IMG/VR virus record: IMGVR_UViG_2778261154_000013
Coordinates: 1-9,418 of that record
DNA length: 9,418 nt
Strand: one strand, 5' to 3'
Source of the DNA: a virus
Lineage: Duplodnaviria; Heunggongvirae; Uroviricota; Caudoviricetes
Numbering within the stretch: position 1 is the first letter of the stretch; each line of letters opens with the position of its first letter. Below, in pieces: positions 1-6,121 of this stretch. The translations under genes were made by a program, and so were the position numbers. The notes under the pieces are model-generated. The model was not told the DNA's origin, ran no database searches, and saw only the letters and a program-made list of their open reading frames with translations.

Positions 1-286
1 AACTGTGCCGCGTGCGCTTAGCCGCATTCACCGCATCACAAAATTCACTTTAAAAAGGGCGGACATCAGCCAGCAATTAAACCGATGCCGCCAACTGGTA
101 CTTCACACAGCAATGTCGTTATTTACAACCGGAAGCGCACTCCCACCATTTAAATTTCACAGACAAGACCGACTCTTTATGAATACCGGAAATGCGCCTT
201 CGTGTTGTGCCCGGTTTTATTTCACCACCTCCGGGCTTTGGTGGTATCTTTACTGAAGTTTTCACACAACCAGTAAGGAAATGAAT
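1..286. other. Non-coding leader/intergenic region upstream of the 287..577 gene
   Basis: All three minus-strand frames hit stops within the first 80 nt, and the only longer minus-frame stretch (122-313) has no ATG. The + ORF 5..256 is Cys/Arg-rich with no RBS. Contains a hairpin ACCACC(224-229)/GGTGGT(240-245) with a 10-nt loop. Confidence 0.5.
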
Positions 287-577
287 ATGCCAACGTATCT
301 CGCCAGAGTAGAACTATATAATGCTGAGCCAGAGGATTACGAAGGGCTTCATAAATATATGCTCTCACTAGGATTCAGGAGAACGATCCCCCATGGAGAT
401 GGTTCGTATAATCAACTCCCGGACGGAACTTATGTTTCCGAAAAGGGCGGTGATATTTATCAAATTCGCAGCCAGATATCTGACTATGCAGACCGACTAT
501 CCGGGTATCGCGCGTCTGTTTTTGTTTGTGAATTCAGTCAATGCGCATGGTATTTATACCCCGCCAAGACCCGGTGA
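287..577 (+). CDS. Hypothetical 96-aa soluble protein in the sieB-equivalent slot; candidate moron or superinfection-exclusion gene
   Basis: ORF 281..577; the second ATG at 287 has SD AAGGA (275-279) at 7-nt spacing, whereas ATG 281 directly abuts the SD. No hydrophobic segment, so it is not SieB-like. Rightward orientation opposite the leftward early genes, as for sieB in Rac/lambda. No family recognised by eye. Confidence 0.6.
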   Translation: MPTYLARVELYNAEPEDYEGLHKYMLSLGFRRTIPHGDGSYNQLPDGTYVSEKGGDIYQIRSQISDYADRLSGYRASVFVCEFSQCAWYLYPAKTR

Positions 578-757
578 ATATCCTGCACGGCCTTCTGCTT
601 TGTAGAAGGCTTCTTCGCTATCATAATCGCCAGATTCCAGCGCTTCTTTAGCCAGCCAGATGCGTGCCCCAGTGCCTGCATTTGGCTCCAGTTGCTGGAG
701 GCGTTTTGCATCTTCTAGGAGTAGAGCGATAACGTGTTTTAATTCTGTCTCGTTCAT
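554..757 (-). CDS. Small hypothetical early-left protein (Rac YdaF/YdaG-like, tentative), 67 aa
   Basis: Minus-strand ORF 554..766 (GTG); the internal ATG at 757 has SD AGGTGA 5 nt upstream and gives MNETELKHVIALLLEDAKRLQQLEPN... The start lies 1 nt downstream of the upstream gene's stop (coupled). The 3' end overlaps the convergent 287..577 gene by 24 nt. Confidence 0.6.
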   Translation of the reverse strand: MNETELKHVIALLLEDAKRLQQLEPNAGTGARIWLAKEALESGDYDSEEAFYKAEGRAGYSPGLGGV

Positions 758-758
758 T

Positions 759-914
759 TTACTCACCTGAATGTCTTCCCAACCAACGACGTGCGCCAGC
801 TTCGGTTTTAAACGTTTTGCTTTTGGTATACGTCATGGCGGTGAATGTGCCGTCTTGATTGGGAAACACGCCACATACCAGAGATTCGTTGTTGCCAAGA
901 TCGATAGTATTCAT
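759..914 (-). CDS. Small hypothetical early-left protein, 51 aa (Rac YdaF/YdaG-like, tentative)
   Basis: ORF 759..977 begins with TTG; the internal ATG at 914 is preceded by a G-rich SD (GGGG, 5-nt spacing) and gives MNTIDLGNNESLVCGVFPNQDGTFTAMTYTKSKTFKTEAGARRWLGRHSGE. First gene downstream of the pL-like promoter. Confidence 0.6.
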   Translation of the reverse strand: MNTIDLGNNESLVCGVFPNQDGTFTAMTYTKSKTFKTEAGARRWLGRHSGE

Positions 915-1094
915 GTTGACCCCATTTCCCCTTAACGCCGGGTGGCGGAACGTTTTATCTACTGCGCTTTGTATCAATCAACAACTGCCGTCATGTTCGT
1001 ATGCCTCAGGCTGGCTACTTAGCCCTGTTCAGTGACTGGATAACTCGAGGTATTGTCCTGCCGTTCTCTGGTGGGGCGTTGTTTGGATATGCTT

Positions 1095-1136
1095 ATTAAA
1101 CACAATTTGTTTTCTTATGTCAACACGTAATGTGTT
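1095..1136 (-). promoter_or_regulatory. pL-like leftward early promoter with overlapping operator sites
   Basis: On the minus strand: -35 TTGACA (revcomp of 1118-1123), 17-nt spacer, -10 TTTAAT (revcomp of 1095-1100). Operator-like inverted repeat AACACgtaatGTGTT at 1122-1136 overlaps the -35; a degenerate copy AACACaatttGTTTT at 1099-1113 overlaps the spacer. Confidence 0.5.
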
Positions 1137-1164
1137 TTATGGTGGGTGTCATATGATGATGCTA

Positions 1165-1190
1165 CAAAAAAGCCCGCTGATAGCGGGCTG
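1165..1190 (-). terminator. Rho-independent terminator ending the repressor transcript
   Basis: Perfect 8-bp stem AGCCCGCT(1171-1178)/AGCGGGCT(1182-1189) with a 3-nt loop, followed on the minus strand by a U-run (+ strand A-run 1166-1170). Lies 30-55 nt downstream of the repressor stop (1220). No T-run on the + side, so it is unidirectional. Confidence 0.8.
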
Positions 1191-1219
1191 ATTGGCATAT
1201 TACTGTGATAGCAAGATCA

Positions 1220-1639
1220 TTATTCCGGTGGGGGATTATCTTTAATCCTGCCTCTCAAATATTTTTCTACATACTCATCGATTTCTTTTAGCCGGACTTC
1301 AAATAGCTCAATCATTCGTTGTTGTTCTGAGCCCGGTAGCTGGTTAAACAACTCAAGAAGTTTTCGTTGGGATTCATTTAACCACAATTCAGAAGATTCC
1401 TGTTCTCCAAAGAGGAGCTCAGGAGGAGATATGCCAAGTGCCTTTCCCAATACGACAGCGTCATGTACTCCAACATTTCTGCTGCCCGCCTCATAGTTAC
1501 CTATACGCGATTGCGTCCATCCGCAGATTTCAGCAAGTTTTCCTTGAGATAAACCAAGCTTCTGCCTGCGCTCTTTAAGACGCATTGCAATTTTGTCATT
1601 GAGCCTACTAGCGGCAATTTTTTCGTTTTCTTTTTCCAT
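1220..1639 (-). CDS. Prophage repressor, XRE-family helix-turn-helix, no S24 peptidase domain
   Basis: 139 aa; HTH signature LGLSQGKLAEICGWTQSRIGNYEAG; ATG at 1639 with SD AAGGA. Divergent from the Cro-like gene, the classic cI/cro arrangement. Too short to carry a LexA-like autocleavage domain. Confidence 0.85.
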   Translation of the reverse strand: MEKENEKIAASRLNDKIAMRLKERRQKLGLSQGKLAEICGWTQSRIGNYEAGSRNVGVHDAVVLGKALGISPPELLFGEQESSELWLNESQRKLLELFNQLPGSEQQRMIELFEVRLKEIDEYVEKYLRGRIKDNPPPE

Positions 1640-1735
1640 TGCATCCTTGTATCACGAATCGTGATTTACATAAAACACAAAACAGCTTGACTATATAACA
1701 CAAGGTGTGTTTAAAATTGTCATCGGAGGTTTTCA
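1640..1735. promoter_or_regulatory. Divergent immunity operator/promoter region (pRM-like leftward, pR-like rightward)
   Basis: Perfect palindrome ATCACGAaTCGTGAT at 1651-1665. Second palindrome AACACAaggTGTGTT at 1697-1711, of the same AACAC..GTGTT family as the oL sites. Putative rightward -35 TTGACT at 1687-1692 and -10-like TAAAAT at 1712-1717 (spacer about 19 nt, so the alignment is uncertain). SD GGAGG at 1725-1729. Confidence 0.6.
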
Positions 1736-1960
1736 ATGAACAAAATTTCAACATATCGAAAACAGCTTGGGCTGTCTCAAAGACAACTTGCTGTTCAGTT
1801 AGGGTGGATACAAAGCCGACTGGCAAATTACGAAGCAAATTTTCGTACCCCTGGACTAGAGGAGTGCAGAAAAATTGTTTCTACCCTTAATCGGCTTGGC
1901 GCTCATTGTGGACTTGACGATGTATTCCCCCAGACGGTAAGCATAGCGAAAACAGCATAG
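1736..1960 (+). CDS. Cro-like small HTH regulator (XRE family)
   Basis: 74 aa; HTH LGLSQRQLAVQLGWIQSRLANYEAN; SD GGAGG 6 nt upstream; first gene of the rightward operon, divergent from the repressor. Confidence 0.85.
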   Translation: MNKISTYRKQLGLSQRQLAVQLGWIQSRLANYEANFRTPGLEECRKIVSTLNRLGAHCGLDDVFPQTVSIAKTA

Positions 1961-1973
1961 GAGCGGTTGATTC

Positions 1974-2396
1974 ATGAAAATCAGGCATGAGCACATCGAA
2001 TCAGTGTTGTTAGCCCTGGCAGCCGAAAAAGGGCAGGCGTGGGTCGCTAACGCAATTACTGAAGAATATCTGCGCCAGGGGGGCGGCGAATTGCCCCTTG
2101 TACCAGGCAAGGACTGGAACAATCAGCAGAATATCTATCACCGTTGGTTGAAAGGTGAAACGAAAGCGCAAAGGGAAAAAATTCAGAAGCTGATCCCAGC
2201 AATTCTGGCAATCCTTCCGCGCGAGCTGCGTCACCGACTCTGCATCTTCGATACCCTGGAACGCCGTGCATTACTGGCGGCGCAGGAAGCGTTGAGTACG
2301 GCAATTGATGCGCATGATGATGCAGTCCAGGCCGTTTACCGGAAAGCGCATTTCAGCGGCGGCGGGTCTTCCGACGATTCTGTCATTGTTCATTAA
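1974..2396 (+). CDS. ydaT: CII-like regulator, Rac YdaT-like protein
   Basis: 140 aa, same length and position (immediately after the Cro-like gene) as Rac YdaT; the sequence matches my recollection of YdaT (MKI.HEHIESVL.ALAAEKGQAWVANAITEEYLRQGGGELPLVPG...). SD AGGAG upstream. Confidence 0.7.
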   Translation: MKIRHEHIESVLLALAAEKGQAWVANAITEEYLRQGGGELPLVPGKDWNNQQNIYHRWLKGETKAQREKIQKLIPAILAILPRELRHRLCIFDTLERRALLAAQEALSTAIDAHDDAVQAVYRKAHFSGGGSSDDSVIVH

Positions 2397-2459
2397 GCAA
2401 AAGTTTCCATGCTGTTTGTGCTTATTCTAAGCAACCGGGCAGCATCATACGGGGCAATT

Positions 2460-3608
2460 ATGGCCGCATTACCATACATGCAACTGTACATAGCTGATTA
2501 CCTGGCTGACACCATGCATTTGTCAGCAGAGGAGCACGGCGCGTATTTGTTGCTGATGTTCAATTACTGGCAAACAGGAAAGCCAATACCCAAAAACAGG
2601 TTGGCAAAAATTGCCCGTCTGACTAACGAGCGATGGGTTGATGTTGAACCATCCTTGCGGGAGTTTTTTTGTGATAACGGCGACGAATGGATGCATCTTC
2701 GGATTGAGGAAGATCTGGCATCTGTCAGAGAAAAATTAACCAAAAAATCAGCCGCAGGAAAAGCATCTGTTCAGGCCAGAAGAAGCAGAAAGGAAGCAGA
2801 TGTTCAAACAAAACAAGAGAGAAATTTAACAGGTGTTCAAACAGATGTTGGAGTGATGTTCGAACATGATGCCAACACAAAGGCAACTAATAAAGATACA
2901 GATAAAGATCTAAAAACAGATCTAACCCATCCCAAACCCTTCCCTTCCGGAAGGGAGTTTCGGGATTTTGTGGCTGGAGTGCTTGAGGGGAGATTATCTG
3001 GCGGTACTGCAGCGGAATTTTGTAATTCTGCGGTGGTTGCGTTGCAGGCTGCTGGCCTGGATGTCTGTCGTGAGTATCCGGTGCCAGAGCGTGGTGACGG
3101 TTGCGGAGGGCGGATTGATATCGTCGTGACTGACAGGAACGGTGTCCGGTGTGGGATCGAGCTTGACCGAAATTCTCCGCGACAGAAATCACTGCTCAAA
3201 ATCGGTGCTGTTGAAACCGGGATATGTGTCTTGCGGCGCAGTGATATCGCAAGGCACACCGAGCAGGGAATTCTGGTTATCGGTGGGGCTGTTCGCCAGA
3301 AAAAATTTGACCCGTTGTCAGTTGATCTGCCCGACTGGTTGCCAGAAACACTCTGGCATGAGTGGGTCCAGTTCAGGCAGGCATTGCGAAAACCGATTCG
3401 AACGGAGCAGGGCGCTAACGGGGCGATACGGGAACTGGAAAAATTCCGTCAGCAGGGTTTTACACCTGAGCAGGTGATTCGACACAGCATCGCCAATGAA
3501 TACCAGGGTCTGTTCGCGCCGAAAGGTGTTCGGCCTGAGACGTTGCTCCGACAGGTTAACACCGTCTCGTTGCCGGACAGTGCGATCCCGCCAGGCTTCA
3601 GGGGGTAA
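2460..3608 (+). CDS. Replication initiation-associated protein, DUF1376 (YdaU-like) N-terminal domain, 382 aa
   Basis: ORF 2409..3608; start preferred at ATG 2460 (SD GGGG, about 6-nt spacing), since ATG 2409 has no SD. N-terminus YMQLYIADYLADTMHLSAEEHGAYLLLMFNYW is the DUF1376 hallmark. Sits in the lambda O position, directly before the DnaC-like gene. Confidence 0.8.
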   Translation: MAALPYMQLYIADYLADTMHLSAEEHGAYLLLMFNYWQTGKPIPKNRLAKIARLTNERWVDVEPSLREFFCDNGDEWMHLRIEEDLASVREKLTKKSAAGKASVQARRSRKEADVQTKQERNLTGVQTDVGVMFEHDANTKATNKDTDKDLKTDLTHPKPFPSGREFRDFVAGVLEGRLSGGTAAEFCNSAVVALQAAGLDVCREYPVPERGDGCGGRIDIVVTDRNGVRCGIELDRNSPRQKSLLKIGAVETGICVLRRSDIARHTEQGILVIGGAVRQKKFDPLSVDLPDWLPETLWHEWVQFRQALRKPIRTEQGANGAIRELEKFRQQGFTPEQVIRHSIANEYQGLFAPKGVRPETLLRQVNTVSLPDSAIPPGFRG

Positions 3609-3614
3609 CAGACC

Positions 3615-4361
3615 ATGAAAAATATTGCGACAGGAGGCGTTCTGGAGCGTATCCGCAGACTGACCCCACCACATGTAACCGCCCCATTCAGAACGGTTGC
3701 GGAGTGGCGCGAGTGGCAACTTGCTGAAGGCCAGAAACGTTGCGAGGAGATCAACCGCCTGAATCGTCAGTTGCGGGTGGAAAAAATCCTGAACCGCTCC
3801 GGCATCCAGCCGTTGCACCGGAAGTGTTCGTTTGCGAATTACCGGGCGCAGAACGACGGTCAGCGACATGCACTGAGTCAGGCGAAATCCATAGCTGACG
3901 AACTGATGACAGGCTGTACGAATTTTGTGTTCAGCGGTAAGCCCGGCACCGGAAAAAATCATCTTGCAGCCGCGATTGGCAACCGGCTGATGGCGAAGGG
4001 GCGTAGCGTGATTATCGTCACCGTGTCCGATGTCATGAGCGTGTTGCATGAGAGCTACGACAACGGCAAATCCGGTGAAAAATTTTTACAGGAGCTTTGT
4101 GGTGTTGACCTGCTGGTCCTGGATGAAATTGGCATGCAGCGGGATACGAAAAACGAGCAGGTGGTACTGAACCAGATTGTTGATCGCCGGACGGCATCGT
4201 TACGCGGTGTGGGGATGCTGACAAATATTAACCATGCAGCGATGAATACACTTCTCGGCGAGCGGGTGATGGATCGCATGGTCATGAACGGCGGGCGCTG
4301 GGTGAATTTTAACTGGGAGAGCTGGCGTCCGAATGTTAGCCATTCGAGGGTTGTTAAGTAG
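3615..4361 (+). CDS. ydaV: DnaC-like replicative helicase loader (IstB-like AAA+ ATPase)
   Basis: 248 aa; Walker A FSGKPGTGKNHLAAAIG and Walker B LLVLDEIG closely resemble DnaC; start 7 nt after the upstream stop, with SD GGGGG. Confidence 0.9.
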   Translation: MKNIATGGVLERIRRLTPPHVTAPFRTVAEWREWQLAEGQKRCEEINRLNRQLRVEKILNRSGIQPLHRKCSFANYRAQNDGQRHALSQAKSIADELMTGCTNFVFSGKPGTGKNHLAAAIGNRLMAKGRSVIIVTVSDVMSVLHESYDNGKSGEKFLQELCGVDLLVLDEIGMQRDTKNEQVVLNQIVDRRTASLRGVGMLTNINHAAMNTLLGERVMDRMVMNGGRWVNFNWESWRPNVSHSRVVK

Positions 4362-4375
4362 TTTCAGGAGGATTT

Positions 4376-4798
4376 ATGGCGAAACCTTTTACTCCCGAAC
4401 AGCGGGAAGAACTGAAGACGCGAATTGTGGAACTCGTGCATCAGGACGGTCGGGTCACGATTCGGCAGTTGTCAGATGAAACAGGTATCAGTCGTGCGTC
4501 TGTCGGTCGCTTATGCATGGAACTGGTCGCAAGTGGTGATGTATATAATTCTGGCTACGGCTTATTCCCGTCTGAACAGGCTCGCAAGGACTGGCAAAGC
4601 GCCCGCAAAAAACTCTTGAGAGTAAAGGTGAGGAAACCGGTTGTTGTTGATCCGGACCTTATCTGGTCATTACCTGACGGAGAAATACGCCGCTACGACA
4701 GGCGCCTGAATATAATCTGTCGCGAGTGCCGGAAAAGCAAGGTTATGCAGCGTGTGCTGGCGTTCTATCAGGGTAACTTTCAGGAGGTGATGGCGTGA
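4376..4798 (+). CDS. Hypothetical protein with N-terminal winged-helix-like DNA-binding region
   Basis: 140 aa; SD AGGAGG 7 nt upstream; N-terminal segment VTIRQLSDETGISRASVGRLCMELVASGDV resembles a wHTH; stop overlaps the start of the next gene. Confidence 0.7.
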   Translation: MAKPFTPEQREELKTRIVELVHQDGRVTIRQLSDETGISRASVGRLCMELVASGDVYNSGYGLFPSEQARKDWQSARKKLLRVKVRKPVVVDPDLIWSLPDGEIRRYDRRLNIICRECRKSKVMQRVLAFYQGNFQEVMA

Positions 4799-5100
4799 GG
4801 GTGAGAGTTTATATTGCCGGTCCAATGACCGGGTATAAAAATTTCAACCGTGAGGCGTTCCACAAGGCGGAAGAGAAGCTGAAACAGAAAGGGTGCACGG
4901 TGTTGAATCCGGCAGTGCTTCCTGGTGGGCTGACACAGGCGCAGTACATGGATATTTGTACGGCGATGCTCCGCTGTGTGGATACGATTTACATGTTGAA
5001 AGGCTGGCATCGGTCGGCAGGTGCTAAGGCAGAACTGGCGCTGGCGGCGAAACTGGGGCATGAGGTTGTATTTCAGGAGGCAACCAGTGAGCAAGATTGA
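4795..5100 (+). CDS. DUF4406 family protein (nucleoside 2-deoxyribosyltransferase-like fold)
   Basis: 101 aa; GTG start at 4795 with SD GGAGG (4783-4787); N-terminal motif VYIAGPMTG...NF....F typical of DUF4406/NDT-like proteins; overlaps the upstream stop by 4 nt (GTGA). Confidence 0.75.
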   Translation: MRVRVYIAGPMTGYKNFNREAFHKAEEKLKQKGCTVLNPAVLPGGLTQAQYMDICTAMLRCVDTIYMLKGWHRSAGAKAELALAAKLGHEVVFQEATSEQD

Positions 5101-5695
5101 CTATCAGGCACTGCGTGAGGCGGCACAGAACGCGAAAGATTTAGGTGGGATTAAGAATTACAAGCGAGGTGAGCAAGCTGTTGCCGAATTTGAGTCCTTG
5201 ATAACGGCACACCTTGTGCTGGCACTGCTGGATGAACGGGAAAGAAACCAGCAATACATAAAACGCCGCGATCAGGAGAACGAGGAAATTGCGCTAACGG
5301 TAGGGAAGCTGCGTGTTGAGCTTGAAGCAGAAAAATCAAAACTCAACGAGCAGCGTGAGTATTACGAGGGAGTAATCGCGGATGGAAGTAAGCGCATAGC
5401 AGAACTGGAAGCACGGGAAATAAAACCAGCCAAAGGCGAAGTTCTTGTCGTTGTATCTGGTTTTACTGGTTGCGGGAAAAGCGCCATTGCCGGGGAAATA
5501 GAAATTGCGATGAAAGCTATTGGTGTGCCGGTTCTATGGACTAATGGCGATGCGGAAAAGCGCATGACAGGAGCTGACTGGCTGACAGCGATTGAGATGT
5601 ACAAACCAACTGTGCGCATCGTGGAAGTTAATGTGCCACGCGCCGCTGGCATTCGCATCAAAGGAGAGGAGCATGCAAATAAAACCAGAAGATGA
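5087..5695 (+). CDS. Ead/Ea22-like coiled-coil phage protein
   Basis: GTG start at 5087 with SD AGGAGG (5075-5080); N-terminus SKIDYQALREAAQNAKD... typical of ead/Ea22-like prophage proteins; central coiled-coil (LRVELEAEKSKLNEQREYYEG); overlaps the upstream gene by 14 nt. Confidence 0.7.
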   Translation: MSKIDYQALREAAQNAKDLGGIKNYKRGEQAVAEFESLITAHLVLALLDERERNQQYIKRRDQENEEIALTVGKLRVELEAEKSKLNEQREYYEGVIADGSKRIAELEAREIKPAKGEVLVVVSGFTGCGKSAIAGEIEIAMKAIGVPVLWTNGDAEKRMTGADWLTAIEMYKPTVRIVEVNVPRAAGIRIKGEEHANKTRR

Positions 5696-6029
5696 GTTAA
5701 GTAATATTGTTTTATTTCCGGTAAAGGAGGATGACCCACGTGATCAGGTTAATTTTCTTTATGAGCCATCGGAAAGACCATACTGCCATCACGCTTCTGT
5801 CCGGGTTGACGAAAAAGAGCGTCAGGTCCGCTGTAAAATCTGCGGTGCAGTTGTGGAGCCATTTGACTGGATGCTCTCTGTGGCGAAAAGAGAAACCAGA
5901 CTGGCAGATGATGTAAGGTTATTGCGCCAGGAGGAACAGGAAAGGCGGAAAAATATAGAAAAGCTGATACAGATTGAGCGTAACGCGAAAGCGCGGATAC
6001 GCAGGGCGACAAAATCCAGAACTGAATAA
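5673..6029 (+). CDS. Hypothetical small protein with putative zinc-ribbon (C-H-H ... C-x2-C) and basic coiled-coil tail
   Basis: ATG 5673 with SD AAGGAGAGGAG immediately upstream; the listed start at 5592 has no SD and lies deep inside the ead-like gene. Motif YCHHASVRVDEKERQVRCKICG. Overlaps the ead-like 3' end by 23 nt. Confidence 0.6.
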   Translation: MQIKPEDELSNIVLFPVKEDDPRDQVNFLYEPSERPYCHHASVRVDEKERQVRCKICGAVVEPFDWMLSVAKRETRLADDVRLLRQEEQERRKNIEKLIQIERNAKARIRRATKSRTE

Positions 6030-6121
6030 TTAAATTTAGCACTGTTAAAAATTTAATCCTTAACCGGAGGGATTTCTGCACCCTCAAATCATCAGGAGAC
6101 CGCCCGAAAGGGCGGTAATGA

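Follow-up and report, generated by a model that had tools for sequence, protein, structure and literature searches.

Replication initiators of the lambda O and YdaU kind are regarded as DNA-binding organisers that have no enzymatic activity. The lambda ori lies within gene O, and O-type initiators have an N-terminal origin-binding domain, linker DNA that bears repeats and a C-terminal domain that recruits a partner; we know of no nuclease domain in lambda O. YdaU of the Rac prophage (phrog_6451) is composed of a DUF1376 domain, a linker and a C-terminal domain, and its operon has the order ydaS-like, ydaT, ydaU, ydaV. A literature search gave no experimental paper on YdaU function; gene position and homology point to an initiator role. 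Here we analyse a stretch of 9,418 nucleotides (nt) of Caudoviricetes DNA (IMG/VR record IMGVR_UViG_2778261154_000013, positions 1 to 9,418; hereafter the window), which encodes a YdaU-type initiator. The protein has the layout of the O-type initiators, with DUF1376 rather than Phage_rep_O as its N-terminal domain, and shares the parts and the operon order of Rac YdaU. In place of the ~13 linker residues of K-12 YdaU, however, the window gene carries a cassette 114 amino acids (aa) longer. The cassette encodes a separately folding domain that, as judged by structural modelling, belongs at the fold level to the PD-(D/E)xK nuclease superfamily.

The gene and its modules are:

2460..3608, plus strand: intact YdaU-type replication initiator gene, 382 aa from MAALPYM, taken from the list of open reading frames (ORFs)
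2472..2720, plus strand: DUF1376 N-terminal domain, aa 5-87 (Pfam PF07120, expectation value (E) 6.7e-25, 87.7 bits against a cut-off of 30.1)
2838..2936, plus strand: disordered basic/acidic linker, aa 127-159 (predicted local distance difference test score (pLDDT) <50 in the full-length AlphaFold model)
2949..3290, plus strand: PD-(D/E)xK-fold domain, aa 164-277, predicted as two helices, a three-stranded meander, a helix and further strands
3300..3605, plus strand: C-terminal helical domain, aa 281-382 (phrog_678 'replication initiation O-like', E 1.9e-23; also phrog_18589)

The extra domain and its predicted active site

The ORF is intact from 2409 to 3608 on the plus strand, the first ATG (2409) giving 399 aa and the ATG at 2460 giving 382 aa. 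An earlier reading of the letters alone (the sequence-only reading) had set 382 aa against about 285 aa for Rac YdaU and proposed an extra, globular central segment with a nuclease-like motif. That comparison mixed two start codons, K-12-type ydaU (858 nt, 285 aa) being annotated from the start that corresponds to 2409; the extra segment nevertheless exists. From equal starts the window protein has exactly 114 additional aa (399 versus 285, or 382 versus 268), and a three-way DNA alignment of the window, K-12 and ETEC6333-type genes confirmed the segment. Positions 2949-3290 (aa 164-277) coincide with the predicted folded limits, from the first helix to the last strand, and the segment is globular as proposed, forming a folded domain in the AlphaFold models. 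The string ERGDGCGGRIDIVVTDRNGVRCGIELDRNSPRQK quoted for the motif is found in the 2409-3608 ORF. The segment is not present in all YdaU/DUF1376 homologs: phrog_6451, the typical YdaU family (272 positions), matched the protein with E 2e-116 in only the two stretches that flank it, and the phrog_6451 profile has no positions for the domain. As K-12 YdaU lacks the domain, it is optional. A Pfam scan of the initiator gave nothing above threshold beyond DUF1376 and no intein or self-splicing family.

The full-length model has three confident modules (the nuclease-fold domain at aa 164-276 in this model) separated by disordered linkers, with a predicted template modelling score (pTM) of 0.49, an arrangement suggestive of beads on a string. 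The N-terminal module consists of helices (aa 5-66), a strand (aa 76-79) and a long helix (aa 82-123); its DUF1376-coding part (2472-2720) has 97% nt identity to K-12 ydaU, and the domain is presumed to be the origin-binding module, which would bind iterons within its own gene. The C-terminal helices at aa 296-345 have pLDDT >90. This C-terminal domain is common to YdaU and some lambda-O-like proteins and presumably recruits the helicase loader (YdaV/DnaC-like).

Modelled by AlphaFold with an alignment of 60 sequences, the extra domain gave pLDDT 92.8 and pTM 0.87 and a topology of two helices, a three-strand meander, a helix, a strand and a further pair of strands, with an alpha-beta-beta-beta-alpha-beta core whose mixed sheet has helices on its flanks. 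The predicted fold is that of a nuclease and not a non-nuclease fold. The nearest solved PD-(D/E)xK structures were those of TIP26 (2czr), NucS (2vld), AF1548 (1y88), the Upx restriction endonuclease (9wuf), BamHI (1bam) and Hjc (1ob8). The superfamily shares with the domain its core topology, the second-strand Asp and the Glu-x-acidic of the third strand, but the solved proteins are only 12-22% identical to it. PD-(D/E)xK relatives are found in restriction, repair or CRISPR proteins, whereas this domain is embedded in replication initiators; it also has motifs of its own, RGDG-x2-GR and a P-R-x-K-S-x2-K helix, and Asp in place of the canonical Lys, where BamHI has Glu. The sequence profile of the domain matched AF1548 with E 0.0046, RvDlvv being aligned with EIDVVA and aIEl with MIEC. 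In BFVD the top match was the free-standing homolog of the Shiga toxin (Stx) phage phi191 (E 5e-9), followed by viral PD-(D/E)xK nucleases.

An exhaustive HMMER search over 1.84 billion representatives (threshold E<=1e-3) returned 296 cluster representatives of the domain. The 'Mrr-like' label of the sequence-only reading fails, as Mrr_cat (PF04471) gave no match at E<=1 to the protein or the segment and was outside the top 25 Pfam families over 150 relatives; the nuclease resemblance itself is borne out by the predicted fold, with Asp rather than Lys at the third motif position. The only Pfam family with a signal on the domain was REase_MTES_1575 (PF18741), which spans the second and third strands. 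Its scores of 13.9 and 12.3 bits (E 0.06-0.18) were below the gathering cut-off of 38.2, and at E<=1e-3 it matched 3 of the 150 relatives (best 3e-5) and left 147 unmatched; it is a family separate from the domain. No NCBIfam model passed for the domain, neither the protein nor the domain nor the free-standing homolog had a PADLOC match at E<=1, and a single-sequence phmmer search of the PDB gave only a chance match (hnRNP L, E 1.6). The only family home of the domain, which has no family name, is phrog_1347 (function unknown). This profile matched the segment with E 5.3e-22 at positions 161-266 of 417, and gave E 2e-58 with the free-standing Fels-1 protein and E 2e-43 with the Providencia O-like protein. 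We rate the domain as a new PD-(D/E)xK family and its placement as a new architecture for lambda-O/YdaU-type initiators.

Conservation was counted over 150 representatives that share ~30-45% identity and include fused and free-standing forms. The conserved features are:

3072..3074, plus strand: E205 on the first core strand, candidate metal ligand (Glu in 132/150)
3090..3119, plus strand: RGDG-x2-G-R-I-D motif (R211, G212, D213, G214, G217, D220)
3159..3167, plus strand: E234-L-D236, third core strand; corresponds to '(D/E)xK', Lys being replaced by Asp (E234 and D236 each 148/150)
3180..3200, plus strand: conserved basic helix R241, K243, S244, K247 (helix 242-248 in the full-length model)

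Within the RGDG motif R211 is kept in 142/150, D213 in 142/148, G217 in all 150 and D220 in 146/150; in the basic helix the counts are 147/150 for R241, 139/149 for K243, 148/149 for S244 and 149/149 for K247. Hence E205, D220, E234, D236, R241, S244 and K247 are retained in 88-100% of the representatives, and the fused and free-standing forms have the same pattern of active-site conservation. The acidic residues singled out in the sequence-only reading (D in RIDIVV, E and D in IELD) are among the near-invariant ones. D220, which lies in core strand two, represents the canonical 'D' in PD-(D/E)xK and aligns with the D of IDVVA in AF1548, and E234 aligns with the IE of AF1548. Judging from the strand limits of the model, D220 would pair with E234 in a beta hairpin, and D236 would face the same side. 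The predicted site is all-acidic and BamHI-like (E205, D220, E234-x-D236), and K243 and K247 of the next helix might substitute for the Lys. Because almost all relatives keep the predicted site, divalent metal binding and the cutting or nicking of DNA are the most likely activities of the domain.

Mosaic origin, distribution and neighbouring repeats

The boundaries of the exchange were given by DNA alignment of the window gene with K-12 ydaU and the ETEC6333-type gene:

2919..3380, plus strand: recombination cassette, coding for the nuclease-fold domain and ~27 aa at the start of the C-terminal domain
2409-2918: 97-98% identity to K-12 ydaU, 38-51% to the ETEC6333-type gene
2919-3380: 59-65% identity to K-12 ydaU, 95-97% to the ETEC6333-type gene
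3381-3608: 96% identity to K-12 ydaU, 96% to the ETEC6333-type gene

The N-terminus of the ETEC6333-type gene product is unrelated to that of the window protein and matches phrog_2509 'replication initiation protein'. As the 462 nt of the cassette take the place of ~120 nt of K-12 ydaU, the event was a cassette exchange and not a clean insertion, which corrects the sequence-only reading in this one point. The domain entered the gene by cassette recombination in the linker/origin region. Cassette DNA is carried by 40 of 5426 complete Escherichia coli genomes, in only 2 of the 40 behind DUF1376, and in the four loci that we inspected it lies between ydaT and ydaV. Synonymous to non-synonymous codon differences among E. 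coli alleles were 13:2, 9:0, 11:0 and 2:0. As these allelic differences are almost all synonymous, the segment is under purifying selection. With the spread over E. coli genomes and the 296 cluster representatives, this marks the segment as neither an artefact nor a motif that arose by chance.

The domain occurs both within initiators and as a gene of its own. Of the 148 representatives that could be used, 74 are flanked at both the N- and the C-terminus, and 58 stand alone (~85-150 aa). Pfam matches over the 150 relatives identified the N-terminal flanks as HTH_36 (9), DUF1376 (8), Phage_rep_O (4), DUF6291 (4) and assorted winged-helix domains, and the C-terminal flank as Phg_2220_C (5). By sequence clustering, the N-terminal regions of the domain-bearing proteins fall into at least 12 clusters. 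For 43 of the 83 fused proteins, the closest relative by domain carries another N-terminal type, pairs of domains 91% and 86% identical stand behind unrelated N-termini, and the domain also shuffles relative to the C-terminal type. Each of three initiator PHROGs that lack the domain (6451, 2509 and 345) matches a domain-bearing member in two flanking stretches. Sequence comparison hence places the domain between the N- and C-terminal domains of at least three initiator families. True Phage_rep_O proteins with the central domain include P0038 and that of Providencia phage PSTCR7lys, in which the domain lies inside 'DNA replication protein O', beside a DnaB-type helicase. An enterobacterial relative, P0010, lies in a prophage replication region with cro/YdaS-YdaT.

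The free-standing form is a 122-125-aa ORF directly upstream of a superfamily 2 (SF2) helicase and a primase in Fels-1, phi467 and PhiR12_3, and has the same placement in ~65 records of Stx-converting phages, many of them Stx2a. Three such homologs are:

L005 2402-2770: Fels-1 STM0899
L006 2426-2803: free-standing homolog
L007 2402-2770: free-standing homolog

The neighbouring helicase-primase pair fits the description of Eru1, an SF2 DEAD/DEAH helicase and a Toprim protein; that work names eru1A-C and not the upstream gene (PMC8044961). All the examples that we examined place the domain in replication modules. A separate observation concerns a metagenomic protein of 564 aa (P0130), which has HTH_36, an HNH domain (aa 97-142) and the PD-(D/E)xK domain (aa 308-416); this initiator-like protein hence has two nuclease domains.

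The linker-coding DNA of the window gene contains iteron-like repeats:

2799, 2832 and 2855 (2799..2868): three iteron-like repeats GATGTTCAAACA, GGTGTTCAAACA and GATGTTCGAACA, the last palindromic; candidate origin

The pattern GATGTTCAAACA, with <=2 mismatches allowed, occurs seven times in the window versus 1.13 expected, and six of the seven are in the initiator gene; further matches lie at 2555 and 2640. The three best repeats precede the cassette by 50-120 nt. Counting the window gene, three initiator types have iteron-like repeats shortly before the domain-coding DNA. In the ETEC6333-type gene they take the form of three TGTAACGC-N5-GCGTTACA palindromes, of which the last precedes the domain copy by ~60 nt:

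L003 3532-3555, 3724-3747 and 3931-3954: palindromes of the ETEC6333-type gene

In the O gene of Providencia PSTCR7lys, four tandem ~23-nt iterons (L004 2332-2421) lie ~80 nt before the domain copy. By analogy with gene O, the repeats would mark an origin within the linker-coding DNA, which would put the domain-coding DNA beside the presumed origin. No iterons came up when the surroundings of the free-standing Fels-1 and PhiR12_3 genes were searched for repeats, and thus location next to an origin is not established as a constant of the free-standing form.

Proposed role and its alternatives

Starting from the extra segment, its fold, its conservation, its modular distribution and its mosaic origin, all established above, catalysis, a substrate and a role at the origin may be proposed as follows. 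The domain would be an active metal-dependent nuclease or nickase that the initiator holds at the origin or at branched DNA, a proposal to which we give about an even chance; the origin nicking put forward in the sequence-only reading is a plausible form of it. Tethering between the presumed iteron-binding DUF1376 domain and the presumed loader-recruiting C-terminus would hold a nuclease at the phage origin. The initiator would assemble on the origin with the domain hanging between the modules on flexible linkers, and the tethered domain could then nick or cleave unwound or branched origin DNA. Such a cut could give the replisome an entry point or a 3' end, the outcome being, for example, the start of, or a switch to, rolling-circle or recombination-dependent replication. 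Nucleases in replication-starting proteins are known from the HUH Rep proteins (phiX174 A, P2 A), which cut DNA to make a starting point, but these are functional analogues only, having another fold and a covalent tyrosine link. The endonuclease domain of the R2 retrotransposon is of the PD-(D/E)xK type and was among the fold matches; it too is only an analogy, as it primes reverse transcription.

Several results weigh against an active origin nuclease. The canonical catalytic Lys is replaced by Asp (D236, Asp in 148/150), although active exceptions without this Lys are known, such as BamHI with E-x-E. Foldseek against the PDB gave no match at E<=1e-3 (the top matches were still PD-(D/E)xK proteins), so the family has no close solved relative and the active-site equivalence is drawn from topology and one weak profile alignment. 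The domain occurs with a DnaC-like loader, with a DnaB-type helicase or with an SF2 helicase plus primase, and this variety speaks against a single fixed mechanistic partner. Parts of ydaU find matches in about 1500 E. coli genomes and the module in only 40; the domain is dispensable for the basic initiator architecture. Literature searches on DUF1376, YdaU, MTES_1575 and initiator nuclease domains gave nothing on the domain, and nuclease activity is unrecorded for any member of the family.

The missing Lys would be expected if the nuclease fold were non-catalytic and served instead in binding DNA structures (single-stranded DNA, forks, junctions) or in oligomerisation, aiding origin assembly or helicase loading. 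TIP26 is among the fold relatives, as are NucS, Hjc and Bax1-type proteins, which recognise branched or single-stranded DNA, and the domain is optional and occurs alongside several kinds of helicase partner. We nevertheless consider this explanation unlikely. Inactivated PD-(D/E)xK domains usually lose the acidic and basic residues of the site, whereas here five acidic and three basic positions are near-invariant over the 150 representatives, the pattern of a retained metal site. The patchy presence in E. coli and the shuffling of both flanks might alternatively reflect a selfish homing-type cassette, the nuclease cutting domain-less initiator alleles at or near the origin/linker in co-resident lambdoid phages or prophages and repair copying the cassette; as it lands in a flexible interdomain linker, the host protein would tolerate it. 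The insertion point is fixed, just 3' of the iterons, the cassette is 96-99.5% identical at the nt level behind two unrelated N-terminal domains, P0130 has an HNH domain as well, and a phage gene with an in-frame homing insertion has been described before (PMC11855218). Against this, the junctions are unclean and the right flank has diverged, intein or intron features are lacking, no target site was identified, and the free-standing copies keep a fixed position in helicase-primase operons. Ordinary mosaic recombination of phages explains the same pattern, and a domesticated function fits at least equally well with catalytic residues kept over ~300 deep clusters under strong purifying selection. 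We hence regard homing as rather doubtful.

The nuclease fold with its intact acidic residues, together with the annotation of the neighbouring Rac genes ydaS and ydaT as toxins, could also suit the second idea of the sequence-only reading, that the domain acts in exclusion or host attack, degrading host or competitor DNA or serving as a toxin or defence effector. We judge this quite improbable. The idea is without support from PADLOC, no model of which matched the protein, the domain or the free-standing homolog, and the examples examined are fused to initiator domains or lie in a replication operon, unlike the varied context of defence genes. The explanation implied by the RefSeq annotation, a decaying and meaningless insertion in a pseudogene, has the least standing and in our estimate next to no probability. 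The Prokaryotic Genome Annotation Pipeline (PGAP) labels both halves as incomplete in every genome inspected, and the FDAARGOS_944 prophage has insertion sequence (IS) elements and a broken recE. The frame is nevertheless open across the whole gene in all alleles inspected and the substitutions are overwhelmingly synonymous, which contradicts this reading; moreover, the segment folds at very high predicted confidence and has hundreds of relatives.

If the domain is active as an origin-tethered nuclease, an enzymatic step would be added to initiation in many temperate phages, given its reach over hundreds of clusters, at least 12 initiator N-terminal types and the free-standing form of Fels-1 and the Eru1-type Shiga-toxin phages. 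A conserved nuclease site in 'organiser' proteins would surprise specialists in phage replication. A bolder proposal, which we think improbable as it stands, is that of an initiator class with its own tethered restriction-type nuclease that either cuts its own origin (e.g., to pass from theta to rolling-circle or recombination-dependent replication) or acts as a gene-drive cassette that cleaves the domain-less origins of rivals. If true, the former would provide a protein-encoded trigger for a replication switch that is poorly explained in lambdoid phages, and the latter a cassette that copies itself into the initiator genes of rival phages or prophages; highly virulent Stx phages would have, in the free-standing homolog that precedes their Eru1 helicase, a fourth replication gene so far overlooked.

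Gene annotation and the surrounding prophage

The start of the initiator gene is ambiguous. By taking the 2409 ATG, PGAP adds 17 hydrophobic residues (MLFVLILSNRAASYGAI); the ATG at 2460 is preceded by a GGGG stretch, and the DUF1376 profile starts five residues after it. The gene is 100% identical to that of E. coli FDAARGOS_944 and stands in a Rac-type early operon of the order repressor, cro/YdaS-like, YdaT, initiator and DnaC-like YdaV, the last being its downstream partner:

3615..4361, plus strand: ydaV, DnaC-like ATP-binding protein (ORF, 6 nt past the ydaU stop codon)

All related loci annotate the downstream gene as 'ATP-binding protein' or ydaV. In all four genomes inspected PGAP splits the intact initiator gene into two 'YdaU family' pseudogene pieces, both labelled 'incomplete; partial in the middle of a contig'. 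The pieces annotated by PGAP are:

L001 (FDAARGOS_944) 8950-9462 and 9862-10149
L003 4390-4704
L008 and L009 2060-2506 and 2876/2903-3190

As PGAP calls the genes pseudogene fragments, the full-length proteins are absent from RefSeq protein sets, and a word-indexed protein search with the segment gave only five partial matches, the full-length protein being unrecorded owing to this annotation. The domain has also escaped the notice of family databases. Another label found in phage records, 'primosomal protein I' for YdaU, is probably explained by a DnaT-like C-terminus: aa 364-382 (3549-3605) weakly resemble the C-terminal end of DnaT (NCBIfam NF002770, E 0.0093, far below the cut-off).

All three AGATCT (BglII) sites of the 9.4-kb window are within the initiator gene (2711, 2906 and 2918), two of them flanking the left cassette junction, and the fold matches include the BamHI/BglII/BstYI group. 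We rejected the sites as evidence for a BamHI/BglII-like link: the ETEC6333-type allele has the same domain without the sites, and the observation is post hoc and probably a coincidence.

The window is 99% identical overall to the FDAARGOS_944 prophage, except at 4788-5642, where ~855 nt differ, including a 101-aa ORF (4795-5100), and FDAARGOS_944 has the IS3-family element ISEc52 (L001 11329-12619). Given this difference, the window is a related but different prophage copy. Elsewhere in the window, and unrelated to the initiator, are an HNH endonuclease gene (6342-6707) and a Hok/Gef-family toxin gene (8189-8344), both matching the annotation of the RefSeq locus.

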